Of a DNA stretch of 64,000 nucleotides, positions 10,777 to 61,240 are shown in pieces (position 1 is the first letter of the stretch; each line of letters starts with the position of its first letter). Both the position numbers and the translations under genes were made by a program. The DNA is from an uncultured Planctomycetia bacterium (GTDB lineage: Bacteria > Omnitrophota > Gorgyraeia > Tantalellales > Tantalellaceae). The DNA is taken from contig CAYPCX010000004.1 in NCBI GenBank assembly GCA_964409365.1, forward strand, positions 21,015 through 85,014, given 5' to 3'. Under the pieces are notes generated by a model. The model had not been told where the DNA came from, ran no database searches, and saw only the letters and a program-made list of their open reading frames with translations.

Positions 10777-10970
10777 GCGCCACGGTAGCTCAGCAGGTTC
10801 CCCGAACCCTTTTAGGGTTCGGGATAAAAGCAACCGGGCAGTCTCATTTTCCCCGAACCCTTTCAGGGTTCGGGATAAATTCGGCCATACAACTTATGTT
10901 CGCTGGCGCTCCATAAGTTGTGGCCTCATTTAGAGCAGGGATTTGGCATATAGAGGACTTGGCATTGTGG
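10777..10970 (+). repeat. Pseudo-tRNA-Phe fragment (5' 22 nt of tRNA-Phe duplicated) interrupted by two 33-bp palindromic direct repeats and a third hairpin
   Basis: ggcgccacggtagctcagcaggt at 10777 is identical to the 5' end of the intact tRNA at 10970; tagagcaggg fragment at 10931; repeats ttccccgaaccctttNagggttcgggataaa at 10798 and 10849. Confidence 0.6.
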
Positions 10971-11089: not shown

Positions 11090-11514
11090 TTAATTCGGTT
11101 CTTCATAGGGGGAAACGAGAGTTTCCCCCTCTTGACGGTCGCTTCGCGACCTGTCACCCCCTTCCCATAGGTTTTAAGGAATCATGCCTGCTTTCTGGAT
11201 CAAAGAAGAAGGGGGAAGTATATCCCCCTTCTTCTTTGGAATAATATTCCCCTAAATTTGTGCTTTACTTTATATTATTGCTGGATGGGACAGGCCCCCT
11301 CAAGTTGTCTCTAGGATCGCATGCCACGTGTCGGGACCTTAGCTCGCTATGCTGGCGCTGGGGCGGTTACCGCTCCTTGTCCATGGTATTGCAGGAACGA
11401 CGAGGCGGGATTTTGTTCTGTTTTAAGACAAGATACAATATGTTCGGGTTGAGGGCTAGATCACTCGAAGAAACTTGAAAAAAGCCGAAGAGCCTCGTGT
11501 TCCATCTGTAAACC

Positions 11515-11730
11515 ATACGTAACCAGTTCCCAGTAACCAGTTCCCAGTAACCAGTAACCAGTAACCAGTAACAAGGAAAAAGGAAAAAGGAAAAAGTATC
11601 AAGTGTTGAGTTGTGAGTTGTTAGTCATGAGTTGTACGACTCAATACTAAGAACTAAAAGCTAACAACTAATATCTTCCAGGCATCTACGTTCTTCTGTC
11701 CTCTGTCTTCTGACCTCTGTTTTCTGACAC
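11515..11730. repeat. Composite heptad-array element: (CCAGTAA/CCAGTTC)n-(AGGAAAA)3-120-bp core (IR-L 11596..11715)-(NNCTGNN)5
   Basis: 7-nt periodicity throughout; core is the reverse complement of 18411..18530 (about 94% identity by eye). Confidence 0.85.
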
Positions 11731-11791
11731 CTGCGACCTTTCATCCCCCTCAAGTTGTATCTGGAATAGCAAGCCAGTATACTTACAAGAG

Positions 11792-18368: not shown

Positions 18369-18410
18369 TCCGTTGCGTGAGGATCGAGAGTTTAGATGTC
18401 AGGTCTTAGG

Positions 18411-18572
18411 GGTCAGAAGACAGAGGACAGAAGGACGTAGATGTCTGGAGGATATTAGTTGTTAGCTTTTAGTTCTTAGTTTTTAGTCGTACAACTCATG
18501 ACTAACAACTTACAACTCAACACTTGATACTGGTAACTGGTAACTGGTAACTGGTAACTGGTAACTGGTAAC
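18411..18572. repeat. IR-R core (18411..18530, reverse complement of 11596..11715) followed by (CTGGTAA)x6
   Basis: manual reverse-complement comparison; few mismatches. Confidence 0.85.
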
Positions 18573-26300: not shown

Positions 26301-29300
26301 TCGTCAGGGAACAACCTGAGATGCTACAAGCGGCAAAAGATTTTTACGCTTATTTATCTGAAGCAGGGAAAGACATCTTGGACCAGTTGAATATAGATGA
26401 GAACAAACTACAGGATATAAGATCGATTTTGGAAGGAAGGGGTTTGTCTCCGGACATGGTCCGGTGTTTGAGGCAGGATGCGGAGATCATAACCGGCAGA
26501 ACGAAGGGTAAAGGTACGGTCAAAGCCTCCCCGAAAAGATTTTCGGACGATTATGAAATAGTCGAGGTCGCCGATGTAAAAACACTTGTTCCCGTTATTA
26601 TGTATGTTCAGGAAATGAAAGCGCGTGAAGTCACGGATGCGGAACTCTCATTATACGCGGTGACTGATGATGATTTGAGAAAAGGAGTTCGGATGCCGGA
26701 GAAATTACCGGCCGCAAAAGAGATGCTTTACAGGAAAGCGTTGAGAAACCTGAAAGATGTAAATTGGTACAAAAGGGGCTGGCAGGAAGTTCAGGGTTTA
26801 TCCCCGGCGAATAAACGTTTTCTGAAAGAAAAAGCGGAAGAGATATGCGGGGATAAACTTGAAAAGTGCTGGGGTTTTGTAGAAGGCATTTCAAGCGAGC
26901 AGGATTATGCCGAGAAACTAATGAGAACTGAGATTGCCACCGTGAACAGTATGCGTGATTTCACGGAGTTTATAATATTGTTGGCGTGTATTTACGGAGG
27001 CGAGCAGACGCATGATGAGATGCGCGTGGCCTTGGAAAATATAGAAAAAGAGCATGAAAATGCCGCCCTTCTCGGTGATGCGCCTGTTCTCGACAGACTT
27101 GACGAAGATGTATCGGTAAATGTAGGGACTTTCGCAAAGATCGCTTTTTCCTTTCTTGAACATGAAAAGGGCTTGGAAAGAGACAGTAAAGAGTACAGGG
27201 CGATACTGGATGCGGTACGGCGTATAAATTCCTCCGCTAAAGTGCAATGCCGGCCGGAATCGAGCGAGAGATGGATAAGGGACTTTTTGGCATGGATACA
27301 CGCGGGATTCAGGTATTATCTGATGCCGAAAGGCGGCGAGATATACGACGATCGGCATGGGCCGGGTGTGTTGCGTGAAGGCGGGGCCATTGTTCCGGGA
27401 AGGGCGGTAACACCCTTTACACTGGTATCCGGTGCCGTAAAAACTTCGGACGCCGAGCTTTTCTCCGCTGAGGCGGGGAAACTGGGAATATTTACTTATG
27501 TCCTTCCTCCCGGGTTTGTGACATGCCGGATATCTTCTACCGGAAGGAATATAATCCTTAAAACGGGGCACATTGATGTAGTCATGGGTGTTGTTCCGCC
27601 GGAGTTTACAAGCGATGGCAGAGCCAAACTCCTGATGGATCCGAGTTATCACAACCTGGTGAAAGACAACCCCGAATTTCTGCGTCTTTTGGAAGAACAG
27701 GGTTCTAATATGGATGTGGTCCTAATACATCCGGAAGAAACTTACCTTAACCTGGCCAATTTCAGCTCGCTCCTGGATGAAAATGGGCAGGTCAAACTGC
27801 TTTTTAATCACGACAAAGGCCTTACTTTGCCATATTTGAATTTGAAAACGGGTGTTCTTTTCCAGACGGATATGGAAATAACGGGAATGGCGGTTCTTAG
27901 GGGCCTGGTAAGGTGTATGACAAATATGCTTCCCGGGAGCTACGTAAAGGGAGGCGCCTCTACCAGCATCGTGATCCGTGATAGCGGTATGCCACCCGGT
28001 GTGGCGACAGGCCTTCATGCGTTAAGTAAGGACCCGGAACTGAAAAGGGTGTTGCAGGAGCTTTGGATAAATAGATTGACGATAACTGGGACTAAATTTC
28101 GTCCTATGTCCCTGGTCCATTATGATTCGTCAACCCGGAGGATTCTCGTCCAGTTGGGGAATGATCTTGTAAATGATCCCAGCGCCGCCTGCGATTATGT
28201 TATTAATTACTTAGAAGCAACCCGGCAGCGTCTGTGCCAGGATATGGGTATATCTGTCCAGGGGTTTGGTGATACCCGACAGATGGGTGGATCGGCCCCG
28301 GCTCCGGCCGGTATGTTCCCGTGGATGTGGCGCGTCTATGATCCGATAAAAAGAGGTCTTGAGAAGAGGGACTGGCCGGCGCGCCGGATCGCCGGTCTGA
28401 TAGGCGGCCTGGAAGAGCTGGGGATCGCGGGCCTGGTCATGAACGGGGCAGCTTTTGCGTTAAGTTATTTTTGCGGGATGCCTTTTATAACAGCTCTTCT
28501 GGTGACTTCAGCGGTCGCGGTGCCGTTTTTTCCGGCAGGACATATTAGAGGACGGTATTATATTCAAGGAGGGGGATTTGCCCCCGCTTTGCCTTCTAAT
28601 TTCTGGAAGGATATGGGCGTCCTTACAGTTCTTGGACTTACGACAAGATCCCTGCAGCTATTGCCTGTCGCAATGGTATGCGTGTTTAACCTTAATCCTG
28701 CCTTTACGCTGGTCGGCATCCCGCTTGCCGTTATCGCGCATGCTTATTATAACCATTCCGTAGCGCCCGAACGCAACCGCCCTCTCGGCATGCCATGGAA
28801 AGGTAAACCCCACAAGTGGACGCCGGAACGTATATCTGAAGAGCTTCGCATGATGTATTTTGACGGAGTGGATTCAAGAGGTGTGAAGTGCACACGTGAA
28901 GACCTTCGGATCGAAAAAATAAGAGACCATTATCAGGGTCTTGCTGTTGCGGTCCCGAGGACTTGGAAGGAAATGCTGAAGGAACAGGGAGTATCAGAGA
29001 ACAGCCGCCTTTATATTTACATGTCCGGGGAAGGCAGAAATCCCAGGGAAGGTATTAATAAGGCAGGATGGGAGTATTTCTGGGCGACGATCGGAGTGAA
29101 TTACGAAAGAGATATTGAAAAGAAACCGGGTGCTGCAGAAGGGGCTTATATACCGAACGCGACCGATAGCGGCATAGAACACCGTGATTTGAAAAAGTTC
29201 GTTCCGGAAGAAGATGAGCTGTTCGGTATTGTCAGGGAAATGTTGGGCGGGGAAGATCTCACTGAACACGAGATAGCTGATATCATCCTCAACGCGCCCG

Positions 29301-32038
29301 ATGATGTTATTTCAGATGATCAGAGATTCATTTTAAGGGAATATTGCGGACTTAACAAGAGCGGCGTAGCAACGATGGTAAAAGATATCGCTGAGGAAAT
29401 GGGCATCTCCACGACCGCCGTGATCGATTCGAGGAAGAGAGCTTGTGAGAAGATCTATAACTGGCTTAAAGCCCAGCAGAGAACGGAAGGGGCGGAAAGG
29501 CAGGATCTGATCTTGCGGGACGAACCGGATCTTTATTACAGATTACAGGAAATGGGCATTAATACTGTCATCGAGCTTTCGGATCTTACGGAGAACGAGT
29601 TCGCGGAACAGCCGGGAATAAATTCCTGGCACGTTTCTGTTGCTAAGCAAAAGCTTGTTGAAGCTGGCCTGGGAGGATTCCGTTCGCCGTCGTTAGGGAG
29701 GAGCGCCCCTATAGAAAACTTGAGTCTGGCTGTGGAAAACCCGGAAAGGGTTCATGCGCTTTTGAGGAAAAAAGGCGTAAACACCGTTGCGGTGCTTTTG
29801 AAGATCGGGGTAGGGGGGCTTGCGGATAGGCTGGGAAAAGAGGCGTCACGACATATCATTGCCATAAGAAGGGCGGTAGCGCCGCATGGTTGGGAATTAA
29901 GGTTCCCCGCTGCAGTGAGTAACAACGATCCCATAGAATGTCTGCCTTTTCCCGCTTGGCACGAGTACGATACTTGTCAAAGGCTCAGGGAGGTCAATAT
30001 CAAGACTATCGGCCAGCTTCGGGACAAGACCCGAATAGAGCTAAAAAGGGTCGAGGGTATAGGGCAGGCGCGGCTGGAGATCATCACGAGAACTCTTGCT
30101 TATTATGACAAAGAATTAAGGGTTGACAGCGCGTTGAAGGAAGAGGATTCGATAAGAAAGCTTTGGATCTCTGCTTTTAAATCAGAAAATGTTTATAGCG
30201 CCCTTGAAGGGGCTGGTATTATTACTATCGGCCAGCTTTTAGATAAGACAAGAAAGGATCTCTTGCGGATCCCCAAGATCGGCGAACGTGCCGTTGCCGC
30301 TATTGAGGAAAAACTGGCTGTCTACGGCTGGAGATTACGTCAGGAGAGCACGATCGATGGTGTTCCTGCCGATATTCCGGCCGGAAGTATCGAAAACGTG
30401 CTCAGCTATTTTTGTGATCAAGACATAACCGATCCTGGGAAAGCCCTTACGCTGGAGCAGGCAGCAGATCGTTTGGGGCTTTCACCCTGGACAATAGAGC
30501 CGGACATAAGGGCGTTGAGCCTGCACCTGGATCTTTTGGAGGTCGTTCCTCCGGGTGGGACGGGTAAAAAGAAGAGGTATTACGTCCCGGAAAGCGTGAA
30601 GAAGAAACTCGATAGGATACTCCCGGTCCTATCCCAATTCCGCGGTGAGAATCTCCGCCCGAAAGTCGCACTTCTCGATGAAGTCTACGAAAAAGAAATA
30701 TTCCCGATTCTTGCCCCGGAAAAAAGTATTAAGCTTGAGATGATAAGACCGTCACCGGAATTGGAAAACAGAATTGAAAAATTCAGAGGAGTCGTGAAAA
30801 AACTTACCGATGACATACAAGGATCTTATGACGAAGAGCGGGGAACTTATTCATCAAAAGAATACGAAGCCGTGATAGCTGCCTTCGTGAATAGCCATAA
30901 GCCGTCCAGCATAGGCTACTACCATCCTTCTCCTTCATGGGCTATTCCTATTTTTCTCGAACATTTAGGGATAAACGAAAGTGATATAATGCTGGAAGCG
31001 GGAAGCGGAAAAGCTATTGTATCTTTTGAGGCCGCTTGTTTGTTCGGCGCTCGCGCGACGGCGGTGGAATATAGCGAAGCCTTCCACGTGTACGCCGGAC
31101 TGATACAAAAGGGGTTAATAAAAGAGGGTGTGCTGGAAGACAAACATGTGACTTTGTTCAATAAAGATTTTCTGGAGATGGATTTCTCTGAATACTCGCT
31201 GATCTATTACCAGTCACAAGGGACGCGCAAGAAGGAAGAACTGCTTAAGAAGATGTTGCAGATCAAACCGGGTGGCAGGATATTGATCTACGCGGGATAT
31301 GAACCCGAGATAGAGGACGAACTCAATGCGAATCCGGAGTTCGAAGCGAAGAAACTACAGATCGAAGGGCACCCCGGTGCTTTAGAGATGAGGGTCTATA
31401 CCAGGGTCGCCCGAGCGGATGAGGATGAGAAGCCGGTGGTCGATATTGCCAGCGAGGACAAGATCGCTCAGGATTTCATAGATGCGGTTATTCTGACGAT
31501 CGACGCGCTGGGAAGAAGATCCGGCAGGCAGAACAAGAAGATGATGATCGGTATTGACACAAGCTGGATACCGGAAGAGCAGCGGCATTCATCCGCGATG
31601 GTGCAGACCCTACTGGCGGCGATAAAAGATGCGCTTAGGGAGATAGGGCGGGAGGACATCGTTTTACTGGATGATAGTGACCCGGAGGGGTTAGCAGAGC
31701 AGCTCCGGACGGAAAGCGGGAAGACGGGAGTACCGCTTTCAAATATCGCGATAGTAAGTGCCGAAAAGACGTTCGAAGGAACGGACATTTTCGAGGAATT
31801 CAAGGGCGAGAGCAGGGAACAGGGCGCGTTTTTTGCGAAGGTGCCGCTGCCGGAAAAAGGACTTTCAAAGGATCTTGACATCAATATCGTCAAGATGTTG
31901 ACGATATTGATGAAGCATATATCCGACCCGGACAGCCCCCGCGAATTCTATTTGCCGATACCAGACGCGAAAGAGGTAGGGATAGACAAGCTCGGGGATG
32001 TTCATAAAGCCCGCGCCGAGGCGTTGATCAGGGCGTAA
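23345..32038 (+). CDS. Giant multidomain membrane protein (2,897 aa): N-terminal signal/anchor, FabD-like acyltransferase, degenerate protein-kinase-like domain, several TM blocks, sigma-70 region-4-like HTH (x2), four RNAP alpha-CTD-like HhH repeats, class I SAM methyltransferase
   Basis: single uninterrupted ORF; domain motifs identified by eye (see findings). Confidence 0.8.
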   Translation: MNNYFNIHRLWFKTVATGVVCLFLLNNFSFALEPTTGQRSCHTLSPQSRFPFVIKDRVNETELTQRLQNDAGLIYVSLLIGKVLAANGSVISDRGLRTLIERHILHIEPVSFDWENLRKEGKTFCLPYTEKGGNRTRILRYYLPEDKPEEAIGKRSIPLGTGNARVILEDTRVDVSESVFIFNVGTDDIKGGTGRELYETNRIAQGIYDRAAEALGCDVSMLFLEEKNRGITERWAVGNILYGVALYAAFSGRMETNDAPIALAGNSMGEIGALIVSGAVSLEDGVRLARFCGHFFETVVDKVDYGVVILEGIESDAIKGFLDPGKVELFQDVSPSSISLAVSRDVDHEELVNRLKEAGARRAQYFEKPLVKGSHVSWYSRYGQGLVDQIREMKISDPEIPVISPATGEILTTADQVREDIQTQFFRPIAWRGVVDKAVESGARSMLAFGPGWRIIKRTESMGSGIEIIPATDLAELESLKHKVRGFGSENLRPDIGTVVKGQDGHTYEIKEIITTGGTAIIFGARDMETSKNVAIKFLDFSIVPEPEEFIKLFKREVDVLKKGFTFAPGFYDWNIVDDPKGYGWIAMEKLEGVELWKWAADKYQDQTIGVQEKVRDIVEIVQKVLNHMSALYENGIQYREVNRKNIIVTPESEPKLVDFVGACVPGHDPIPLNKLPCTPNYLPPDRHREIKLKGPGVLDDVTTPQYDVFQMGVLLFHLARMTGPPDDGSYWDVSFTYETYTREKIEDMLPPAWKRFAGVIFKATARELEDRYESAEEMKRAIEEQEDAPGSEGFGDGTHGPDFGKSNRKKFCLVAMGAVSPWVVLILLAGMVICDMVYGVINHERFYQVILNKHPKLTLALKNLFYRQYLPDLISKPLQRWAVSALGRLMDKIKEFTDKLPGIRFRDPVVVMEAELAGTGDKVISDIGFQVPIVFEMSKSGRKGRGRGSNKRRKQMSKRPPAAEEPKPYDDLISCAGYALNNLVIVREQPEMLQAAKDFYAYLSEAGKDILDQLNIDENKLQDIRSILEGRGLSPDMVRCLRQDAEIITGRTKGKGTVKASPKRFSDDYEIVEVADVKTLVPVIMYVQEMKAREVTDAELSLYAVTDDDLRKGVRMPEKLPAAKEMLYRKALRNLKDVNWYKRGWQEVQGLSPANKRFLKEKAEEICGDKLEKCWGFVEGISSEQDYAEKLMRTEIATVNSMRDFTEFIILLACIYGGEQTHDEMRVALENIEKEHENAALLGDAPVLDRLDEDVSVNVGTFAKIAFSFLEHEKGLERDSKEYRAILDAVRRINSSAKVQCRPESSERWIRDFLAWIHAGFRYYLMPKGGEIYDDRHGPGVLREGGAIVPGRAVTPFTLVSGAVKTSDAELFSAEAGKLGIFTYVLPPGFVTCRISSTGRNIILKTGHIDVVMGVVPPEFTSDGRAKLLMDPSYHNLVKDNPEFLRLLEEQGSNMDVVLIHPEETYLNLANFSSLLDENGQVKLLFNHDKGLTLPYLNLKTGVLFQTDMEITGMAVLRGLVRCMTNMLPGSYVKGGASTSIVIRDSGMPPGVATGLHALSKDPELKRVLQELWINRLTITGTKFRPMSLVHYDSSTRRILVQLGNDLVNDPSAACDYVINYLEATRQRLCQDMGISVQGFGDTRQMGGSAPAPAGMFPWMWRVYDPIKRGLEKRDWPARRIAGLIGGLEELGIAGLVMNGAAFALSYFCGMPFITALLVTSAVAVPFFPAGHIRGRYYIQGGGFAPALPSNFWKDMGVLTVLGLTTRSLQLLPVAMVCVFNLNPAFTLVGIPLAVIAHAYYNHSVAPERNRPLGMPWKGKPHKWTPERISEELRMMYFDGVDSRGVKCTREDLRIEKIRDHYQGLAVAVPRTWKEMLKEQGVSENSRLYIYMSGEGRNPREGINKAGWEYFWATIGVNYERDIEKKPGAAEGAYIPNATDSGIEHRDLKKFVPEEDELFGIVREMLGGEDLTEHEIADIILNAPDDVISDDQRFILREYCGLNKSGVATMVKDIAEEMGISTTAVIDSRKRACEKIYNWLKAQQRTEGAERQDLILRDEPDLYYRLQEMGINTVIELSDLTENEFAEQPGINSWHVSVAKQKLVEAGLGGFRSPSLGRSAPIENLSLAVENPERVHALLRKKGVNTVAVLLKIGVGGLADRLGKEASRHIIAIRRAVAPHGWELRFPAAVSNNDPIECLPFPAWHEYDTCQRLREVNIKTIGQLRDKTRIELKRVEGIGQARLEIITRTLAYYDKELRVDSALKEEDSIRKLWISAFKSENVYSALEGAGIITIGQLLDKTRKDLLRIPKIGERAVAAIEEKLAVYGWRLRQESTIDGVPADIPAGSIENVLSYFCDQDITDPGKALTLEQAADRLGLSPWTIEPDIRALSLHLDLLEVVPPGGTGKKKRYYVPESVKKKLDRILPVLSQFRGENLRPKVALLDEVYEKEIFPILAPEKSIKLEMIRPSPELENRIEKFRGVVKKLTDDIQGSYDEERGTYSSKEYEAVIAAFVNSHKPSSIGYYHPSPSWAIPIFLEHLGINESDIMLEAGSGKAIVSFEAACLFGARATAVEYSEAFHVYAGLIQKGLIKEGVLEDKHVTLFNKDFLEMDFSEYSLIYYQSQGTRKKEELLKKMLQIKPGGRILIYAGYEPEIEDELNANPEFEAKKLQIEGHPGALEMRVYTRVARADEDEKPVVDIASEDKIAQDFIDAVILTIDALGRRSGRQNKKMMIGIDTSWIPEEQRHSSAMVQTLLAAIKDALREIGREDIVLLDDSDPEGLAEQLRTESGKTGVPLSNIAIVSAEKTFEGTDIFEEFKGESREQGAFFAKVPLPEKGLSKDLDINIVKMLTILMKHISDPDSPREFYLPIPDAKEVGIDKLGDVHKARAEALIRA

Positions 32039-32040
32039 TA

Positions 32041-32077
32041 CAGGTCTCAGGTCACAGGTTTCAGGTAGCAGGTCACA
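32041..32077. repeat. (CAGGTNN)x5 heptad array just after giant ORF stop
   Basis: caggtct caggtca caggttt caggtag caggtca. Confidence 0.8.
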
Positions 32078-32142: not shown

Positions 32143-32217
32143 CGCGGGGTGGAGCAGAGGTAGCTCGTGAGGCTCATAACCTCAAGGTCGGCGGTTCGAT
32201 TCCGCCCCCCGCAACCA
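32143..32217 (+). tRNA. tRNA-Met (CAT), initiator-like (C1:A72 mismatch, close to E. coli tRNA-fMet)
   Basis: CGCGGGGTGGAGCAG...GCTCATAACC...GGTTCGATTCC...CCCCCGCAACCA. Confidence 0.85.
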
Positions 32218-32253: not shown

Positions 32254-32262
32254 TTACCCCGG

Positions 32263-32300
32263 TACCTGAAACCCGACACCCGACACCTGATACCTAACCC
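32263..32300. repeat. (ACCYGAN)x5 heptad array upstream of purB promoter
   Basis: acctgaa acccgac acccgac acctgat acctaac. Confidence 0.8.
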
Positions 32301-37482: not shown

Positions 37483-37545
37483 GCAGAAGGCAGAGGACAG
37501 ATTGTTCATTTCTTTTATCTGTTTTCTGACTTCTGATTTCTGAAA
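37483..37545. repeat. Forward (CAGANGG)x3 and reverse-complement (TCTGNNN)x4 heptad arrays forming imperfect long hairpin between rpiB and glyA
   Basis: read in sequence. Confidence 0.7.
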
Positions 37546-37568: not shown

Positions 37569-38831
37569 ATGAGGCATTTACATAAGGCCGATCCTAAGAT
37601 ATTCCAGGCCGTGCTCGGGGAGACGAAAAGGCAGAACGAAGGGATAGAACTCATAGCGAGCGAGAATTTCGCGAGCCGCGCCGTCATGGAAGCGGTCTCT
37701 TCCGCGATGACCAATAAGTATGCCGAAGGGTACGCGCACAAACGCTATTACGGCGGGTGCGAGTTTGTCGATATCGCCGAAGATATCGCGATAGCGAGGG
37801 CGAAAGAGCTTTTCGGGGCGGAACACGTTAACGTACAGCCGCATTCCGGTTCTCAGGCCAACCAGGCGGTGTTCTTTTCGACGGTGGACATAGGCGATAC
37901 TGTTCTGGCCATGGACCTCGCTTGCGGGGGGCACCTTACTCATGGGCACAAGAAGAACTATTCCGGTAAGTATTTCAACATGGTCTTCTACGGGGTGAAC
38001 AGACAGACGGAGAAGCTGGACTTCGATGAGATACGCAAAAAGGCAAAAGAGGCGAGGCCCAAGATGATAATAGCCGGGGCATCGGCTTACCCGCGGCAGA
38101 TCGACTTCCCGAAATTCCGTGAGGTCTGCGATGAAGTAGGGGCGGTGCTCATGGTGGACATGGCGCACATAGCCGGGATTGTGGCGGCGAAACTGCACCC
38201 CGATCCCGTCGCGGTGGCGGAATTCGTGACGACAACGACGCATAAAACGCTCAGAGGGCCCCGCGCCGGCATGATACTTTGCAGGGAGGAGTTCGCGAAG
38301 AAAATAGATTCGGAGGTATTTCCCGGCATGCAGGGCGGGCCCCTCATGCACGTCATAGCCGGAAAGGCGGTCGCTTTCCAGGAAGCCCTCAAACCCGAGT
38401 TCAAGGAATATCAGAAGAGAGTAGTGGGTAACGGGAAGCGGCTTGCCGATGAACTGGCCGCCAGGGGATACAGGATAGTGTCCGGCGGGACGGATAATCA
38501 TCTGATGCTTGTGGACCTGAGCGGTAACGGTCTTACGGGAAAGATCGCGGAGGCGTGTCTGGACAAGGCTGGTATAACGGTGAACAAGAACCTCATCCCC
38601 TTCGATAAGGAAAAACCCTTTGTCACCAGCGGTATAAGGATCGGCACGCCCGCGGCGACGACCAGGGGCATGGGCGAGGGAGAGATGACGAAAATAGCGG
38701 GGTTCATCGACTCGGCCCTGAAAGCGTGCGGGGATGATAAGCGGCTCGCCGTGATACGCGAAGAGGTGAGAGAGTTCCTGAAGGATTTCCCGCTGTACAG
38801 GGAATGGATAGACGAGATGGAGAGGATGTAA
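37569..38831 (+). CDS. glyA: Serine hydroxymethyltransferase
   Basis: canonical SHMT motifs incl. [15 protein letters not shown]-lysine region. Confidence 0.95.
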
Positions 38832-38910
38832 AGAAGGATAAAGGATAAGGGAAAAAGGGTGAAGGGTAAAGGAAAAAGGATAAAGGAACAAAGAAAAAGG
38901 GAAAGAATAA
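38832..38910. repeat. (AAGGNNA)x11 heptad array spanning glyA-stop to dCMP-deaminase N-terminus
   Basis: aaggata aaggata agggaaa aagggtg aagggta aaggaaa ... Confidence 0.8.
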
Positions 38911-39353
38911 ACAGGCCGAGCTGGGATGATTATTTCATGAATATAGCCCGGCTTGTCGCGACACGATCGACCTGCCTGCGCAGACAGGTAGGCGCTGTTG
39001 TCGTCAAGGATAAGCAGATATTGGCCACCGGGTACAACGGCGCTCCTTCGGGGCTGACCCACTGCGACCAGGTCGGGTGCCTCAGGGAAGAGCTCGGGAT
39101 CCCTTCGGGCCAGCGGCACGAGCTTTGCCGCGCCTTGCACGCGGAGCAGAACGCCTTTTTGCAGGCGGCCAGGCACGGCGCCAGTCTTGCCGGCGGTACG
39201 CTGTACATAACGACGCAGCCCTGCAGTATCTGCGCGAAGATGCTGATAAATGTCGGCATAAAAAAGATCGTTATCGAGGGGGACTACCCCGATGACTTCG
39301 CCCTTCAATTCCTCAAGGAGTCCAAAATAGAAACGGTGGTGCTTGGGTCATGA
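38859..39353 (+). CDS. Deoxycytidylate (dCMP) deaminase, ComEB-type; start uncertain (GTG 38859 inside heptad array)
   Basis: RPSWDDYFM...RSTC N-terminus, HAEQNA and PCSICA zinc-binding motifs. Confidence 0.8.
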
Positions 39354-53574: not shown

Positions 53575-54510
53575 ATGGATAAACTGACGATTTTCAGCGG
53601 GAACGCCAATCCCGCCCTGGCGAGGAAGATATGCGAGAACATGGGCGTGGAACCGGGAGATATAGAAGTGGCGAGGTTCCGCGACGGTGAAACGCGGGTC
53701 AAGATAAGAGAGAACGTCAGAGGCAAGGATGTGTTCGTGGTACAGTCTACGTGCTTTCCCGCGAACGAGAACCTGATGGAACTGCTGATAATGCTGGATG
53801 CCATAAAACGCGCTTCCGCGCAGAGGATAACGGCTGTCCTGCCTTATTTCGGGTACGCCCGGCAGGACCGCAAGGACCAGCCGAGAGTGCCGATAACGGC
53901 AAAACTCGTGGCTAACCTGTTGAGCAGGGCGGGAGCGAACAGGATATTGACCATAGACCTCCATGCCGGTCAGATACAGGGCTTCTTCGACATGCCCATG
54001 GACCATCTGTACGCCGTGAGCATATTTCAGCAATACTTCGAGCGGAAAAAATTGAAGGACATAGTGATCGTTTCTCCGGATGTAGGAGGCATAAAGATGG
54101 CCAGGGCCTATGCTAAAAGGTTCAGGGCGGGGCTGGCTATCGTGGATAAACGCCGGATAAACGACGAAGCCGCCGAGGTCATGCATATAATGGGCGACGT
54201 GGAAGGGAAGAACGTGCTTCTGGTGGATGATATGGTGGCTACGGCGGGGAGCCTCGTGGAGGCCACCGGCGCGCTAAAGAAAAACGGCGCGAGAGATATC
54301 TACGCCGCGATAACGCACCCGGTGCTGTGCGGTCCGGCCCTGGAAAGATTGGGATCTTCCCAGGTAAAGGAACTGGTCGTGACTGATACTATACCGATGG
54401 ACAAGGATAAGTTCCTGAAGAACATAAAACAGCTTTCGGTGGCGGAGCTTCTGGCGGAGGCTATAAGAAGGATACACAACGAGGAATCCATAAGCGCCTT
54501 GTTTGAATAA
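53575..54510 (+). CDS. prs: Ribose-phosphate pyrophosphokinase
   Basis: canonical PRPP synthetase motifs (DLHAGQIQGFFD, VLLVDDMVATAGS). Confidence 0.95.
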   Translation: MDKLTIFSGNANPALARKICENMGVEPGDIEVARFRDGETRVKIRENVRGKDVFVVQSTCFPANENLMELLIMLDAIKRASAQRITAVLPYFGYARQDRKDQPRVPITAKLVANLLSRAGANRILTIDLHAGQIQGFFDMPMDHLYAVSIFQQYFERKKLKDIVIVSPDVGGIKMARAYAKRFRAGLAIVDKRRINDEAAEVMHIMGDVEGKNVLLVDDMVATAGSLVEATGALKKNGARDIYAAITHPVLCGPALERLGSSQVKELVVTDTIPMDKDKFLKNIKQLSVAELLAEAIRRIHNEESISALFE

Positions 54511-54630
54511 CAGAAGACAGAGGACAGAGAACAGAAGACAGATAACAGAAAACAGATCATAGTATCTTTTAACATCAAACACCTAATATCTGACTTCTGA
54601 ATTCTGACATCTGACGTCTGATTTCTGAAA
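54511..54630. repeat. (CAGANNA)x6 and inverted (TCTGANN)x6 heptad arrays between prs and rplY
   Basis: read in sequence; arrays are mutual reverse complements. Confidence 0.85.
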
Positions 54631-54649
54631 AAGAGGGAAGGTGGTATAG

Positions 54650-55366
54650 ATGGAAAAGGTGGTATTGAAAGCGTTAGTTAGAGAAGGCGTGGGGAAAAGC
54701 GCCTGTAAGCACCTGAGGAAAGACGGCAGGATACCGGCGGTGGTGTATAAGGACGGCAAGCGCGGCCTCGGCATCCAGGTCGACAACAAAGACCTGTGGC
54801 ACGCACTGCATACCGAAGCCGGGGAGAACGTCATCATCACGATGAACATCTCGGGCGGCGACAAACCGGCCAAAAAAACGGTGATAGTGAAGGATATCCA
54901 GGTAGACCCGATCAATGAAAAATTCCTCCATGTGGATTTCAAGGAGATCTCTCTGAAAGATAAACTGAAGGTAAAAGTACCTGTTATCGTCAAGGGTGAA
55001 GCCGCAGGCGTGAAGGAAGAAGAAGGCGTTTTAAGCCAGATCCTGTGGGAGATCGAGGTAGAGTGTCTGCCGACCGAGATACCCGAACATATCGAGGTTC
55101 ACGTGGAAGACCTGCACATTAACGACTCTATCCATGTCAGGGACATAAAGATCGAGGGAAATATCCAGGTCCTTGATGACCCGGAACAGCCGGTAGTGAC
55201 CGTTTCCCCGCCGATGAAAGAAGAGGAAGAGGTTGTGGCCGAAGTACCGGGAGAAGAGGCGGAAGAGCCGGAAGTTATCAAGAAAGGCAAGAAAGAGGAA
55301 GAAGAAGCTCCCGAAGAGGAAGCAGCCGGTGGTGCCGGTGGCGGCAGGGAAGAGGCAGAAAGCTGA
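54650..55366 (+). CDS. rplY: Ribosomal protein bL25 / general stress protein Ctc with acidic C-terminal tail
   Basis: L25/Ctc N-terminal motif RKDGRIPAVVY; long E/K-rich tail. Confidence 0.9.
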   Translation: MEKVVLKALVREGVGKSACKHLRKDGRIPAVVYKDGKRGLGIQVDNKDLWHALHTEAGENVIITMNISGGDKPAKKTVIVKDIQVDPINEKFLHVDFKEISLKDKLKVKVPVIVKGEAAGVKEEEGVLSQILWEIEVECLPTEIPEHIEVHVEDLHINDSIHVRDIKIEGNIQVLDDPEQPVVTVSPPMKEEEEVVAEVPGEEAEEPEVIKKGKKEEEEAPEEEAAGGAGGGREEAES

Positions 55367-55368
55367 TA

Positions 55369-55926
55369 ATGAAGATCATCATAGGGCTCGGCAACCCGGG
55401 CCTGAGGTACAGGAACACCCGGCACAACGTCGGTTTTTTTGTCATAAGAACGCTTGCTAAAAGGCACGGGATAAACATCAGGAAAAAGGGCTTCGGAGGC
55501 CGCCGCGGCACGGGACGTATCGGGGGCCGGGAGGTCATGTTGTTCGAGCCTTTGACGTATATGAACCTTTCCGGGGAAGCGGTGAAAGCCGTCTGTTCCT
55601 CCCGCCTGGGCGACCGTGAAGATCTTCTGGTCATCAGTGACGATGTGAACCTGCCGCTGGGGAGTATACGGCTGAGGCAGAAAGGGTCCGCAGGCGGACA
55701 TAACGGGCTCCAGTCCATTATAGATCTCTGGGGCCCCGATTTCGCCAGATTGAGGGTCGGAATAGGACGGGAAGGCGCAATGGCGGACATGACCGGTTAT
55801 GTGCTTTCCTCTTTCCCGCGCGGGGAAAGGGCGGCCCTTGAAAAAGCGGTACAGGCCGCGTCAGATTGCGCGGAAATATGGCTGAAAGAGGGCGTGAAAA
55901 CGGCCATGAGCAGCTGTAATAGTTAG
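55369..55926 (+). CDS. pth: Peptidyl-tRNA hydrolase
   Basis: IIGLGNPG...RHNVGF signature. Confidence 0.95.
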   Translation: MKIIIGLGNPGLRYRNTRHNVGFFVIRTLAKRHGINIRKKGFGGRRGTGRIGGREVMLFEPLTYMNLSGEAVKAVCSSRLGDREDLLVISDDVNLPLGSIRLRQKGSAGGHNGLQSIIDLWGPDFARLRVGIGREGAMADMTGYVLSSFPRGERAALEKAVQAASDCAEIWLKEGVKTAMSSCNS

Positions 55927-55997
55927 CGTATATATAATAGTTGAATAAACAAAAGGGTTGTGTTATCATCTAACAAACAAATTCGATAGGTAAAAAC

Positions 55998-56288
55998 ATG
56001 GATGAGGCCAGATCGTATTTAGGAGTGTTTATAATCGCTCCCGAGAAGGAAGAGTCGATAGACGAGGTGCGAAAGAGCATAAGTTCTGTTATCGGCGACA
56101 ATTCCGGGAACGTGACGGAAGAGACCCTTAAGGGTAAGAGAAGACTGTCTTACCCCGTCAAGAAGAAGGCGGAGGGTATCTACTACGAGGTGGTCTTCAG
56201 CGCGGATCCCGGTGTCATAGCCAAGATAAAACGCCAGTGTGAGATCAAAGCGGACATTCTGAGAGTGCTGATAGACAGCAAAAAATAG
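55998..56288 (+). CDS. rpsF: Ribosomal protein bS6
   Basis: S6 fold motifs; conserved S6-ssb-S18-L9 gene order. Confidence 0.85.
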   Translation: MDEARSYLGVFIIAPEKEESIDEVRKSISSVIGDNSGNVTEETLKGKRRLSYPVKKKAEGIYYEVVFSADPGVIAKIKRQCEIKADILRVLIDSKK

Positions 56289-56299
56289 GAGGAGCCGTC

Positions 56300-56749
56300 A
56301 TGGCTGCCAGTCTGAACAAGGTCTTCTTGATGGGAAATCTGACCAGGGACCCGGAGCTGAGGTATGTGCCCAGCGGGACCGCTGTCGCCAACTTTACTAT
56401 TGCCGTTAACCGGCCTTACAAGGATTCTTCCGGCGAGAAGAAGGAAGAGGTCTCCTTTATAAGGGTGGTCGTTTGGGGCAAGATGGCGGAAGTCTGCGGT
56501 GAGTATCTTGCAAAAGGCAGGCCGGTGCTGGTGGAAGGGCGCCTTAAGACAAGATCATGGGAAGGGCAGGACGGCCAGAAACGGAGCACCATGGAAGTGG
56601 TGGCGACCAGCGTACAGTTCATAGGCGCCAGGGCGAGGGGCGAAGCGCAGCAAAGGCCCGCTGCCGGGGCGGCCGTGAACGAAACGTACGGAGAAGTAGA
56701 GTCGATAGATATGGACCAGCAAACCGGGGGAGAAGAGATCCCGTTTTAA
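56300..56749 (+). CDS. ssb: Single-stranded DNA-binding protein
   Basis: LNKVFLMGNLTRDPELRY OB-fold start; C-terminal acidic EEIPF tail. Confidence 0.95.
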   Translation: MAASLNKVFLMGNLTRDPELRYVPSGTAVANFTIAVNRPYKDSSGEKKEEVSFIRVVVWGKMAEVCGEYLAKGRPVLVEGRLKTRSWEGQDGQKRSTMEVVATSVQFIGARARGEAQQRPAAGAAVNETYGEVESIDMDQQTGGEEIPF

Positions 56750-56761
56750 GTAATGAGGTGA

Positions 56762-57076
56762 GTGAAAGAGATGGCTAAAAAAAAGCAGGTAAAGAAGACC
56801 AGGAGAATATTCAAAAAAAGGCCCTGCCGTCTGTGCAAGGAGAAACTGGAGTCTATTGATTACATCAAAGACGTCGATCTTTTGGGCAGGTTCGTTTCGG
56901 ACAGGGGCAAGATCATACCTTCGCGTGTTTCGGGCAACTGCGCCAAACATCAACGCATGGTGTCCAAAGGCATCAAAAAGGCGAGAGTAGCCGCCCTTCT
57001 GCCGTTCGTAAAGATCAAACCCGGGCTCAGCAGGAGAGGCGACAGGGGCGACAGGGGCGACAGGGGGGACAGATGA
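56762..57076 (+). CDS. rpsR: Ribosomal protein bS18 with repeat-encoded C-terminal (RGD)4 tail
   Basis: CRLC...IDYKDVDLL...KHQR S18 motifs; 3' end runs through (GGCGACAGG) 9-mer array. Confidence 0.85.
57038..57072. repeat. (GGCGACAGG)x3 + degenerate copy, 9-nt tandem array at rpsR/rplI junction
   Basis: read in sequence. Confidence 0.9.
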
Positions 57077-57516
57077 AGGTCATCCTCCTGAAGGAAGTGG
57101 GCGGCTTAGGCGATATAGGTGATGAAGTGGAGGTCAAGGACGGGTACGCCAGGAACTACCTGATACCCCGGAAGCTCGTGATAGCGTCTACAAAGGGCGC
57201 TCTTAAGATACTGGAGCAGAAGAGGCACCAAAGGGAACGTAAAGAAAAGCAGCTTAAGGAAGAAGCCGAGCGAATAGCCGAGAAACTGGCGAACGTTTCC
57301 TGTACGATCTCCATGGAAGCCGGCGAAGAAGAGAAGCTCTTCGGTTCCGTGACCTCTGAGATGATAGCCGAGAGCCTGCACGGTGAAGGGTTCGAAATAG
57401 ACAAGAAGAACGTTCGGCTGGAAGAACCTATAAAGTCATTAGGCGTGTATAATGTTGACGTTTGGTTGCATTCGGAAGTCAAGGCCCAGATACGTATCTG
57501 GGTCGTTAAAAAATAG
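57073..57516 (+). CDS. rplI: Ribosomal protein bL9
   Basis: MKVILLKEV...[17 protein letters not shown]. Confidence 0.95.
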
Positions 57517-57560
57517 ATTTTCCTTCCTTGAGATTTAACTCGACAAAGTAGGGTCGTAAA

Positions 57561-58919
57561 ATGGGCACAAAGGCTCTGATCGAGAAAGTACCTCCTCACA
57601 ATATAGAGGCGGAAAGCGAAGTCCTGGGGGCGATGCTGCTTGACAGGGATGCTATAGCCCGTGCGATCGAACTGCGTCTGGAAGATAAGGCTTTTTACAA
57701 CGAAGCCAACAAGGAGATCTTCCGCAGCATACTCAAGCTTTACGACAACAACGAAGTAGTGGATATCGTCACCCTTGCCGAAGAGCTGAAGAAAAGGAGC
57801 GCCCTGGACAAGGTAGGGGGGTATCCTTATGTCACCGAACTCACGAAAAAGGTCCCCACTTCGACGGCTATCGAACACTACGTTAAGATCGTAAGGGAGA
57901 AGTACCTGTTAAGGAACCTTATCAATACGGCCAACCAGATAATATCAGAGAGTTTTGAGCCTTCGAGCGAGGTCGAGGAGCTTCTGGATAAGGCCGAACA
58001 GCTGATATTCGACATAACTTCCGACAAGAGACGGGAAATGAGCGTCTCCGAGATGAAGGACATAGTCAAGGACAGCATAGAGACCATAGACCGCCTTTAC
58101 CAGAGGAAGGAGAACATAACAGGTATCGCCACCGGGTTCCACGATCTTGACGTGATGACGGCGGGTTTGCAGAAAGCGGATTTTATCGTTCTCGCGGGAC
58201 GGCCGTCCATGGGAAAAAGCGCGCTCGCCGCTTCCATCACCGAGTACGCGGGGTTGGTGGAAAAGATCCCCTGCGCGTTCTTCAGTCTCGAGATGTCAAA
58301 AGAACAGCTGGTACAGAGAATGCTCTGTTCGGTGGCCGGGGTCAACGCCCACAAGGTAAGGACCGGGTTCTTTTCGCAATCGGACTGGCCCAAGCTGGTC
58401 AGCGCGGCCGGTAAGCTTTCGGAATCGCCTATTTATATCGACGACACGCCGGCGATATCGGTGCTGGAACTGAGGGCGAAGGCAAGGAGGTTGAAAGCCA
58501 GGTACGACATACGGCTTCTGATCCTGGATTATCTCCAGTTGATGAAAGGGCCTTCGGGCGCGGAAAACCGCCAGCAGGAAATATCGGAGATATCACGTTC
58601 GATGAAAGCCCTTGCGCGTGAGCTCAACGTGCCGGTCATAGCCATAAGCCAGCTTTCCAGAGCGGTCGAGCAAAGGGCCGACCACAGGCCTCAACTTTCC
58701 GATCTCAGGGAATCGGGGGCGATTGAACAGGACGCGGACCTGGTCGTTCTGCTTCTCAGGGAAGAATATTACAATCCCTCGGAGGAGAACAAAGGCCTCG
58801 CGGACGTGATCATCGCGAAACAAAGGCACGGTCCTGTCGGAACGATCAAGCTCGCGTTCCTTTCCGAATATACCAAATTCAGCAATCTTTCAAGGACAGA
58901 CGAAGAAGAGGGCTTTTGA
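57561..58919 (+). CDS. dnaB: Replicative DNA helicase
   Basis: N-terminal PHNIEAE...GAML, Walker A GRPSMGKS, no intein. Confidence 0.95.
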   Translation: MGTKALIEKVPPHNIEAESEVLGAMLLDRDAIARAIELRLEDKAFYNEANKEIFRSILKLYDNNEVVDIVTLAEELKKRSALDKVGGYPYVTELTKKVPTSTAIEHYVKIVREKYLLRNLINTANQIISESFEPSSEVEELLDKAEQLIFDITSDKRREMSVSEMKDIVKDSIETIDRLYQRKENITGIATGFHDLDVMTAGLQKADFIVLAGRPSMGKSALAASITEYAGLVEKIPCAFFSLEMSKEQLVQRMLCSVAGVNAHKVRTGFFSQSDWPKLVSAAGKLSESPIYIDDTPAISVLELRAKARRLKARYDIRLLILDYLQLMKGPSGAENRQQEISEISRSMKALARELNVPVIAISQLSRAVEQRADHRPQLSDLRESGAIEQDADLVVLLLREEYYNPSEENKGLADVIIAKQRHGPVGTIKLAFLSEYTKFSNLSRTDEEEGF

Positions 58920-61240
58920 TGAGAGGTAAAGCTTTTTTGACAGTAATGGTCCTTGTCCTCTTCATTGTGTTTTCATGCGTTCCTTCATGGGCGCAGTATC
59001 CTTCATCCCGAGACTCAAAGCGCATCAGTGACATCAAAATAAAAGGCAACTATTCCGTAAGTACTATCACGATACTGAACAAGCTGAAGATGAAGACCGG
59101 CGATGTGTTCGAAGAAAGCGCGCTCAATAAGGAGCTGAGGCGTCTTTACGCCACCGGTTTTTTCAGCGACGTTTTCGTGGAGACCGAGGACCGGCCGGAA
59201 GGGGTCGTTGTTATCTTCACCGTGGTCGAAAAACCCATTGTAAGCAAGATCGAGTTCCAGGGCAATACCAAGGCCCGGACCGGGCGCCTTATGAAGAAGA
59301 TATCGGTCAAGGAAGGGGATATCCTGGATTTCAGTGTGCTTTCCCGCGACGTGGCCGCGATCAGAAATTATTATATAGAAGAGGGTTACAGCAACGTGAG
59401 GGTCGATTACAGGATCGACACCGACAGGGATACAGGCAGATCCACGCTCGTTTTCGAGATAAACGAGGGAGTCCCTCTGAAGATCAGGTCCATAGCCATA
59501 GAGGGGAACAAGCACATCCCGAACGCCGAGATACTGAAATACATGTCCACTAAGACCGCCTGGTGGTTCATCAGAAAAGGCGCTTATGATCCGGAAAAAC
59601 TACAGGCCGATCTTGACAGGATAAGGTCCCTTTACAGGAGCAAGGGGTTCCTGGATGCCCGTGTTACGAGTAAGACCGATCTTGGCAAGGAGGACAATGA
59701 TATATTGCTCACCGTGATCATCGAGGAGGGCAACCAGTATCAGATAGGTGATATCACCATAAATGGACAGCTGGCGTTCCCGGAACACCAGATACGGGCT
59801 ATGATCAAGTCAAGGCCGGGCGACCCGTTCGATTATCAGAGGATAAAGGAGGATATGGAGGATGTCCGCGCGTTCTACTACGACCGTGGTTATATGAACG
59901 CGGAAATAAACCTCGAGCGCAAATACGACCATGCCACGGGCAGGATGAACCTTATTTATGATATCACGGCCCACGAAGAGGTCTACGTGGGCAAGGTCAA
60001 TATCCTGGGTAACACCAAGACCAGGGACAAGGTCATCCGCAGGGAGCTCAGGGTCTACCCAGGCGACAAATATAACGGTGAAAAGCTCAAGGTCAGTAAG
60101 GAACGCATCTATAACCTGGGCTTCTTCGAGGACGTCTACTTCGAGACCATACCGACCGGCCAGAAGAACGTCAAGGATCTCCACGTGACCGTCAAGGAAA
60201 CAAAGACCGGGGAATTCTCCTTCGGCGGCGGTTACAGTTCTATAGACGCTTTCCTGGGTTTTGTCCAGGTGAACCAGAAGAATTTCGATATATTGAATTT
60301 CCCGACGTTCACCGGCGGCGGCCAGAACCTTACGATAAGAGGCGAAATGGGAAGCGCGAGGACCAATTACCTCCTGAGCTGGACAGACCCGTGGATATTC
60401 GATTACCCGTATCTTTTCGGGTTCGATGTCTACCGGCAGGAACATAAGAGGTACGGTAAGACCGGATACGGGTACGATGAGACCCGTACCGGCGGCGCCC
60501 TGAGGTTCGGCAAGGAAATAACGGATCAGTTAAGCACCGGTCTCATATACAACCTCGAAGAGGTCGATATAGGCAATATCCCGGATAACGCGACGAACGA
60601 TCTTAAAAAAGAAGAAGGCAAGAACTGGATAAGCCGCGTCACATGGAACCTGGGGTATGACTCCAGGGACAATAAGTATTCACCGACACACGGCTGGGTC
60701 GGGAACATCTCACTTGAGAACGCGGGAGGTTTTATAGGCGGGGATAAGGATTTCGTGAAGGGGTTCCTGGATGTCACTTTCTATCACGGTTTCTGGGAGG
60801 ACAATATCGTGCTTTCGCTCAGGGGACGTCTGGGGCTTGGCGACAGTTACGGAGACTCGAACGAAATACCTATTTATGAACGCTTTTTTACCGGCGGCGC
60901 TACGACGCTGCGCGGATATAAACAAAGAGGTGTAGGGCCGCGGGATCTCGGCACCAATACGGCGTTGGGAGGAGAAGCTGTTGTTGTCGGTAACGCAGAG
61001 GTGACATTCCCGATATGGAAGGGCCTTATAAAAGGAGCGGTGTTCTACGATGTAGGTAACCTCTGGGGAAAGATAGAGGACGCTTTCACCACAACGGATT
61101 ACAAGAACGACGTTGGCATCGGGGTGCGCGTAAAAACGCCTATAGGCCCGGTAAAACTGGATTATGGATACCCGCTCAACGATAACCATGACGACAAGAA
61201 GGAAGGCCAATTCTGGTTCAGTGTGAGCCACGGATTCTAA
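58916..61240 (+). CDS. bamA: Outer membrane protein assembly factor BamA (POTRA repeats + Omp85 barrel)
   Basis: signal peptide, 5 POTRA-like modules, C-terminal barrel ending ...WFSVSHGF. Confidence 0.9.
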   Translation: MMRGKAFLTVMVLVLFIVFSCVPSWAQYPSSRDSKRISDIKIKGNYSVSTITILNKLKMKTGDVFEESALNKELRRLYATGFFSDVFVETEDRPEGVVVIFTVVEKPIVSKIEFQGNTKARTGRLMKKISVKEGDILDFSVLSRDVAAIRNYYIEEGYSNVRVDYRIDTDRDTGRSTLVFEINEGVPLKIRSIAIEGNKHIPNAEILKYMSTKTAWWFIRKGAYDPEKLQADLDRIRSLYRSKGFLDARVTSKTDLGKEDNDILLTVIIEEGNQYQIGDITINGQLAFPEHQIRAMIKSRPGDPFDYQRIKEDMEDVRAFYYDRGYMNAEINLERKYDHATGRMNLIYDITAHEEVYVGKVNILGNTKTRDKVIRRELRVYPGDKYNGEKLKVSKERIYNLGFFEDVYFETIPTGQKNVKDLHVTVKETKTGEFSFGGGYSSIDAFLGFVQVNQKNFDILNFPTFTGGGQNLTIRGEMGSARTNYLLSWTDPWIFDYPYLFGFDVYRQEHKRYGKTGYGYDETRTGGALRFGKEITDQLSTGLIYNLEEVDIGNIPDNATNDLKKEEGKNWISRVTWNLGYDSRDNKYSPTHGWVGNISLENAGGFIGGDKDFVKGFLDVTFYHGFWEDNIVLSLRGRLGLGDSYGDSNEIPIYERFFTGGATTLRGYKQRGVGPRDLGTNTALGGEAVVVGNAEVTFPIWKGLIKGAVFYDVGNLWGKIEDAFTTTDYKNDVGIGVRVKTPIGPVKLDYGYPLNDNHDDKKEGQFWFSVSHGF

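Follow-up and report, generated by a model that had tools for sequence, protein, structure and literature searches.

Short tandem repeats at gene boundaries of an Omnitrophota genome: the C-terminal tail of ribosomal protein S18 and two further gene junctions

Tandem repeat arrays in the window

We analysed a stretch of 64,000 nt, here called the window, from an Omnitrophota (Candidatus Omnitrophica) genome; the best homologues of its S18, dCMP deaminase and hydrolase are all labelled as belonging to this group. The window carries the operon of ribosomal proteins S18 and L9 together with a set of short tandem repeats, placed as follows.

55998-58919: operon rpsF-ssb-rpsR-rplI-dnaB
1405, 11519-11728, 18414-18572, 19400, 32041 and 32264: period-7 arrays (Tandem Repeats Finder and period scan)
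34703, 37509, 38834, 52168 and 54510-54628: further period-7 arrays, by the same two methods

In a scan of the window over periods 4-15, 11 arrays had period 7 and a single one period 9, all other periods being empty; the same scan of shuffled sequence returned zero arrays. Three arrays had been pointed out by the initial annotation, within rpsR and at the starts of a hydrolase gene and a dCMP deaminase gene, and Tandem Repeats Finder (TRF) reports all three there. Repeat units are diverse (CAGGTTA, AAGGNNA, CAGANNN/TCTGNNN, TAACTGG, TAACCAG and more). Period-7 arrays sit in intergenic spacers except where they reach a gene's first codons, which is the case from 38859 onward and possibly from 1399 onward, and the 9-mer of rpsR is both the sole array wholly within a gene and the sole array of period 9. 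As for distances to start codons, the array at 1405-1436 ends 1 nt before GTG 1438, the array at 54589-54628 ends 21 nt before rplY, and the array from 38834 spans GTG 38859. Near relatives (L003, L005 and L009) also carry heptamer arrays, one of which ends at the pth ATG in L003, and none was found in 41 kb of a syntenic relative (L168 and L169) with about 75% protein identity.

Seven and three have no common factor, and any stop codon within a heptamer unit therefore recurs in all three reading frames within 21 nt. Hence, an ORF can absorb only stop-free units, of which CAGGTTA and variants of AAGGNNA are found here.

Several other repeat features of the window were recorded on the way. A 179-nt composite of several heptamer arrays is present as two inverted copies, at 11554-11732 (+) and 18394-18572 (-), which are 84% identical overall and roughly 95% identical over a core of about 125 nt, and which bracket 6.6 kb including tRNA-Thr. 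This element may be a small RNA or else a repeat that is mobile or prone to recombination; it has no Rfam match at E<=1, and the fold of 11510-11740 has a z-score of -0.16. Upstream of rplY, (CAGANNN)7 at 54510-54556 faces (TCTGNNN)6 at 54589-54628 across about 30 nt, and the fold of 54500-54650 is likewise not significant (z-score -1.16). With both z-scores insignificant, we do not call the heptamer elements structured RNAs. A TTCTGAC-type array recurs at three loci (upstream of rplY, 37509-37545 and 11692-11733), each unit conserving just a 4-nt core. Inverted arrays, (CAGGTNN)5 at 32041-32072 and (ACCTGNN)5 at 32258-32289, flank tRNA-Met (32143-32217) and its terminator hairpin; the two arrays pair mutually in predicted MFE and centroid folds, a layout that resembles a processing stem. 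An ORF of 2897 aa (window 23345-32038) ends 2 nt before a heptamer array, and the product at the same place in L169 is longer than 3700 aa with no Pfam match. The Rfam search of the window returned four tRNAs at gathering score and nothing else.

Two 31-nt palindromic units (CCCGAACCCTTT.AGGGTTCGGG), 97% identical and 51 nt apart at 10798-10828 and 10849-10879, lie between a gene end and tRNA-Phe and may be tandem terminator hairpins. The large heptamer block is bracketed by a 32-nt direct repeat (84%) at 11295-11326 and 11745-11776; in the downstream copy, a sigma-70-like TTGTAT-17-TATACT precedes ATG 11792 by only about 12 nt, and the mRNA may be nearly leaderless. In the relatives, an array at 3431-3514 of L003 fills the rpsF-ssb spacer, and a 12-nt tandem repeat (GACAGGAACAGC-like, about 5 copies) at 3894-3955 of L009 is found a short way upstream of rpsR, probably within the 3' end of ssb. 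The weak 9-10-nt repeats that TRF reports at the C-terminus of L25 (rplY, 55253-55305) were set aside as a plain acidic low-complexity tail and not a true array.

The rpsR-rplI junction and the S18 tail

The features of the junction are listed below, with Shine-Dalgarno (SD) energies here and throughout computed against an assumed canonical 16S 3' tail, the 16S gene lying outside the window.

56771-57076, + strand: rpsR (ribosomal protein bS18), 101 aa plus stop; Pfam Ribosomal_S18, E=1.4e-21, residues 27-77
57014-57073, + strand: codons of S18 residues 82-101, clade-typical basic extension plus repeat-derived part
57032-57037, + strand: distal AGGAGA, canonical SD-like, presumed ancestral rplI SD; -7.4 to -7.7 kcal/mol
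57038-57072, + strand: 9-nt tandem array, GGCGACAGG x3.9, final unit GGGGACAG; TRF score 63, 96% match
57061-57068, + strand: proximal SD-like CAGGGGGG in the last repeat unit, with synonymous GGC>GGG; -9.9 kcal/mol, 4 nt from ATG
57073-57516, + strand: rplI (ribosomal protein bL9), ATG overlapping the rpsR stop (ATGA, 57073-57076); Pfam L9_N, residues 1-47, and L9_C, residues 63-145

The rpsR ATG at 56771 has an SD-like GAGGTGAG 8 nt upstream, and S18 homologues begin with MAKKK or MGKKK. At its 3' end the gene reads AGC AGG AGA GGC GAC [AGG GGC GAC]x2 AGG GGG GAC AGA TGA. Just as the initial annotation had read it, the ORF runs through the 9-nt array, which gives a (RGD)4 tail, and overlaps the start of rplI, with its TGA at 57074-57076 and the rplI ATG at 57073. 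That this ATG is the right start follows from the L9 N-terminal Pfam domain, which begins at residue 1. Chance predicts 0.69 occurrences of the unit GGCGACAGG in the window; there are 5, three of them exact copies in tandem, and since the copies differ at only one of 35 bases the expansion is probably recent. The promoter and terminator scan of the operon gave nothing exceeding shuffle level.

Each Arg of the RGD repeat is paired with an Asp, and the repeat itself has no net charge. Thus, the repeat does not fit the class of RGG/RG RNA-binding low-complexity sequences, which is marked by RGG/RG clusters and net positive charge. RGD as an integrin or adhesion motif was also considered and ruled out, S18 being a ribosomal protein of the cytosol.

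In principle, such a tail could also stem from a missed stop codon or from an error in sequencing or assembly. Repeats of this lineage do trouble assemblers: a contig of a separate Logan assembly (SRR6963311, contig L001) starts at window position 54514, inside a heptamer array, suggesting that such repeats fragment metagenome assemblies of the lineage. However, the 35-nt rpsR array is shorter than a read, and the frame contains no stop upstream of it. Moreover, L001 is 100% identical to the window over 54514-59583, the exact 101-aa S18 is encoded on 8 contigs, and relatives carry tails of their own. At the level of assemblies, the identity of an independent one means that the tail is not an error, and an artefact can be given a negligible chance. 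No copy-number variation was seen among the 4-8 contigs or assemblies, possibly of one population, that carry the three genes (4 contigs encode the exact 370-aa hydrolase and 2 plus 4 the deaminase), and the 90% clusters contain no length variants, S18 having no entry in the exact-sequence cluster look-up. There is thus no direct sign of slippage still under way. S18 scans of genome and metagenome contigs returned no sequence of the same species; the best matches were 74% and 70% identical.

We then compared S18 C-termini across relatives, defining the tail as the residues after the conserved LLPF, which could be scored in 112 of the 120 closest homologues. Tails turned out to be common. An Arg-rich C-terminal extension of 12-25 residues is present in 80/112, most often with 15-16 residues, and the remaining 32 homologues are tail-less, ending three residues past LLPF. 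The Arg content of the distal part of the extension is 45%, and a typical sequence is VKIKEGLxRRRPRRxx. With 22 residues after LLPF(V/I)K, namely 10 plus (GDR)4, the window tail is at the long end of the clade range but not unique: P0027 has 25 residues, the maximum, and P0004 (tail RDRDRGRDRGER) and P0020 have 22. On this comparison, the 9-mer appears to have lengthened a pre-existing tail by about 6-9 residues rather than to have made one. No solved bS18 chain aligns past query residues 80-84, with the bacterial chains all ending at 80-81, indicating that the extension is clade-specific and without structural precedent among bacterial ribosomes.

It may be asked whether the longer Arg/Gly/Asp tail was selected at the protein level, for additional contacts with RNA on the platform of the 30S subunit, close to the SD helix and to the 3' tail of 16S rRNA. 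In favour, bS18, bS6 and bS21 together form a groove able to bind the 16S 3' tail (PMC7797042). The ancestral part of the tail is conserved (VKIKEGLxRRRPRR), and long RG/RGG-like tails have appeared in other lineages (P0020, P0027 and P0028). However, little net charge is gained where Arg alternates with Asp, the nearly identical DNA copies indicate a recent event rather than long selection, and no solved bS18 bears such a tail. We regard selection of the added residues as quite improbable, and prefer lengthening by repeat slippage. Conservation of VKIKEGLxRRRPRR nevertheless implies that the ancestral tail is under constraint, so the near-neutrality of the added residues is an assumption of ours.

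The DNA of relatives shows that the tail has a second role. In 15 tail-bearing loci of other Omnitrophota for which DNA was available, rplI starts directly after the end of rpsR (15/15), in most of them by a stop/start overlap (ATGA or GTGA). At nine measured junctions, GGAG or AGGAGG lies 4-8 nt upstream of rplI, inside the final rpsR codons; one reads CCC AGG AGG ACA ACA TGA, translated P-R-R-T-T. Thus, the last rpsR codons CCN AGG AGR, read P-R-R or R-G-D, double as the rplI SD site. Tail-less Omnitrophota S18 genes (L012, L013, L057, L068 and L080) end in LLPYTSV and stop, followed by a separate spacer of roughly 3-31 nt with the SD inside it in most cases. From these two arrangements we infer that the tail arose when rpsR absorbed the rpsR-rplI spacer. 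Judged by sequence, rpsR-rplI fits a translationally coupled pair, with a stop/start overlap and the SD in the upstream coding sequence, and window and relatives share both features with ATGA coupling in general. In contrast to ordinary ATGA coupling, the SD-bearing segment is here tandemly multiplied, and the same DNA sets both the tail and the SD spacing.

The window has two candidate SD sites. The distal AGGAGA is 32-35 nt upstream of the rplI ATG, and the 9-mer adds about 27 nt between them; a one-copy model would put AGGAGA 5-8 nt away. In the mechanism that we propose, a 9-nt unit from the SD-to-start segment expanded to about 4 copies, which would be tolerated in rpsR because a 9-nt unit stays in frame. 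S18 would have gained about 6-9 residues, as (RGD)4, and the old AGGAGA would have been shifted to 35 nt from the ATG. The AGGGG of the repeat, which in the final unit became AGGGGGG through a synonymous substitution, would then act as the proximal SD. The 10-mer at the proximal site has a pairing energy of -11.5 kcal/mol, and the inner repeat units are weaker (-6.4 to -6.9 kcal/mol). The GGC>GGG change probably represents SD repair after insertion. A one-copy ancestor is likewise an inferred state, the available relatives being too distant to display it.

L002 provides a parallel. Its tail, PRGDSRGD, derives from an independent 12-nt duplication (CCAAGAGGAGAT/TCAAGAGGAGAT), the second copy of which is 6 nt from the rplI GTG. 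Since the duplicated 12-mer bears the SD, RGD is what the SD (AGR GGA GAY) spells in one reading frame. Tandem duplications occur in two of the 16 tail-bearing loci, the window and L002, and the duplicated unit adjoins the SD in both.

These data also bear on selection at the RNA level, in which multiple SD-like standby sites, a CCUCC hairpin or a putative G-quadruplex would tune L9 expression and RGD would be a by-product. Every repeat unit does offer an SD-like site, the last being the strongest, L002 duplicated its own SD-bearing 12-mer independently, and CAGGGGGG pairs with UCCUCCUG at 57083-57090 (rplI codons 4-6) in the predicted MFE and centroid folds, enclosing the AUG. However, this fold is no better than those of shuffled sequences (z-score -0.19, not significant), the hairpin partner is not conserved among relatives, and any duplication is confined to the 2/16 loci above. 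RNA-level selection therefore seems unlikely, and we favour slippage at the junction followed by local repair of SD spacing.

Heptamer arrays at two further gene starts

The heptamer arrays that reach or approach coding sequence, and the genes that they adjoin, are these.

1405-1436, + strand: perfect period-7 array, CAGGTTA x4.6; TRF 100% match
1438-2511, + strand: secreted GH42-like glycoside hydrolase, favoured start GTG 1438
38834-38911, + strand: period-7 array of about 11 AAGGNNA units (78 nt), spanning the glyA-deaminase junction and the first 18 deaminase codons; TRF
38859-39353, + strand: dCMP deaminase, 164 aa, GTG start inside the array; Pfam dCMP_cyt_deam_1, E=2.2e-26

The stop codon of glyA is at 38829-38831 and the AAGGATA-type array begins at 38834. 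Its units match each other at 78% (TRF), and its period-7 autocorrelation reaches 0.72, with P<0.0002 whether nucleotides or codons are shuffled. Of possible start codons (ATG, GTG or TTG), the frame offers just one before the conserved RPSWDDYF, namely GTG 38859, within the unit AAGGGTG. As the sole available start, it means that part of the array must be translated, which bears out the earlier suggestion that the deaminase may start within an (AAGGNNA)11 array.

The leader of the window deaminase has 21 residues; in most of 120 Omnitrophota homologues, the closest being P0125, RPSWDEYF is preceded by 14-25 residues of variable, Lys-rich sequence. In four relatives with DNA, the leader starts at the glyA stop or just past it. 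A 7-nt period is significant in the leader DNA of the window, of L165 (its units include ATGACAA and AACACGG) and of L167 (AAAAAAC), with P<=0.001 against both shuffles; TRF confirms the periodicity in L165 and L167, and each lineage has a different unit. No periodicity was found in the leader DNA of L163 or of the syntenic L169. Heptamer arrays thus appear to have entered a leader older than themselves more than once, and the array would have rewritten or overprinted an existing leader rather than invented one. In mechanistic terms, an AAGGNNA array would have overgrown the junction until it held the sole usable start, with about 18 array-derived codons replacing an ancestral Lys-rich leader of equal length.

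At the second junction, the CAGGTTA array is placed between the stop of a glycosyltransferase gene (1400-1402) and GTG 1438. The CAGGTTA unit contains no stop codon in any frame, and hence the ORF from ATG 1399 stays open. This alternative ORF (1399-2511, 370 aa) adds MIQVTGYRLQVTG, read through the array, and the hydrolase had earlier been described as beginning with these residues. The ORF indeed reads so, but ATG 1399 is doubtful as a start. Homologues have 24-30 residues before GTT[FY]SP, forming the signal peptide; GTG 1438 gives 30 (MWRRRVFISLVTAGLVFFQSGTAHA...) and ATG 1399 gives 43. In L168, which is syntenic, a mere 7 nt and no array separate the end of the glycosyltransferase (DKKRK TAA) from the hydrolase ATG, and ATG 1399 of the window is itself part of the AAA TGA of the upstream glycosyltransferase stop. 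Mechanical reading of a stop-free array can mislead in this way: in L003, used as a control, the true pth start (MKIIVGLGNPG) comes directly after an (ATACGAN)5 array and the mechanical ORF begins 23 codons further upstream (2385-2453). On the other side, ATG 1399 has the better SD (-9.8 versus -3.7 kcal/mol for GTG 1438) and an ATGA overlap with the upstream stop, and the copy number of the array keeps the frame, an outcome expected one time in three for a non-coding array. On balance we lean towards GTG 1438. If translated from ATG 1399, the added residues would fall in the signal peptide and be cleaved off. Under the preferred start, a perfect CAGGTTA array would have been inserted into a 7-nt spacer and is probably 5' untranslated sequence.

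Heptamer arrays at gene starts can also be regarded as contingency loci, where changes in 7-mer copy number shift the frame and toggle the secreted hydrolase or the deaminase. The perfect CAGGTTA array just past ATG 1399 would suit phase variation, with the frame kept only at copy numbers of 1 mod 3 and both other frames open for more than 70 codons, and the neighbours of the hydrolase are glycosyltransferases of a polysaccharide gene cluster. However, length variants were not found among the 4 contigs with the same 370-aa hydrolase or in the uniform 90% cluster, the array is non-coding if the hydrolase starts at GTG 1438, and the deaminase array is too degenerate for easy slippage. Switching of this kind is very improbable, and occasional slippage without a switching role remains our preferred account of the heptamer arrays.

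Probable repeat slippage at gene boundaries and its meaning

We consider it likely that slippage of repeats at gene boundaries lengthened the S18 tail and supplied the start of the deaminase, and probably left the hydrolase array untranslated. The genome would be prone to slipped-strand expansion of short tandem repeats at such boundaries, where most expansions stay intergenic and three touch coding sequence. Slippage would be tolerated because the protein ends affected were already disordered, variable extensions. The initial annotation went further and held that repeat expansion generates charged termini on essential proteins. Repeats do lie within the translated sequence of S18 and almost certainly of the dCMP deaminase, but the S18 tail (80/112) and the deaminase leader (most of 120) pre-exist in relatives, and among the proteins concerned S18 alone is clearly essential.

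Repeat slippage of this kind is real but fairly ordinary, and period-7 arrays are a known class of bacterial repeat. Cyanobacterial STRR heptamers are comparable tandem heptamer repeats. Among the long simple sequence repeats of prokaryotes, heptanucleotide units are the most abundant, with a sporadic distribution over lineages, and units that are multiples of three are those within genes (Mrazek et al. 2007, as cited in PMC4679880). The window matches this pattern, sharing head-to-tail copies beyond chance, with its eleven 7-mer arrays placed between genes and its single 9-mer array within one, and the patchy occurrence of arrays among relatives agrees too; it differs in that 7-mer arrays also reach a gene's first codons. 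A second system is formed by the TAACTGA direct repeats of marine Beggiatoaceae, Cyanobacteria and Bacteroidetes (MacGregor 2015, PMC4679880), which occupy many intergenic regions, often a few nt from a start codon, and in occasional ORFs code for the outermost N- or C-terminal residues, a glycosyl hydrolase included. Here, too, arrays are mostly intergenic and often immediately upstream of start codons. In contrast to the TAACTGA system, the window has many units, none of them dominant, as well as inverted pairs and the 179-nt composite element. The TAACTGA unit itself is absent from the window, where the nearest units are TAACTGG (18529-18572) and TAACCAG (11519-11572). No link between Omnitrophota and heptamer repeats is described in the searchable literature.

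Repeat-derived S18 termini also have a precedent. The S18 of grass chloroplasts has an N-terminal heptapeptide repeat, (SKQPFRK)6-7, whose copy number varies among species (Weglohner and Subramanian 1991, as cited in PMC2695775). According to this account, the two cases share the protein family and a basic terminal extension made of in-frame tandem repeats. However, the two are not homologous, and they differ in position (N-terminal in the chloroplast, C-terminal in the window) and in unit length (21 nt against 9 nt). In addition, the window array, unlike that described for grass chloroplasts, extends over the region where translation of the following gene starts.

A broader reading can be put forward as speculation, to which we give only a slight chance. 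In this branch of Omnitrophota, boundary repeats might be a regular source of protein ends and start signals: multiplication of the S18-tail/rplI-SD segment would tune L9 and lengthen a tail that may adjoin the anti-SD, and heptamers would overwrite the deaminase leader (three lineages, three units) and may replace SD sites.

The findings open no new biological question; they are of use for annotation and may serve as a test case for repair of SD spacing after an insertion. Stop-free heptamer arrays may be absorbed into gene starts or mislead gene callers, which is a concern for the annotation of Omnitrophota and of other repeat-rich uncultured genomes. The rpsR-rplI junction is a clean case of one short DNA stretch with two roles, a protein tail and the ribosome-binding site of the next gene. 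Because tail and SD share the same DNA, a small slippage event would alter both at once.
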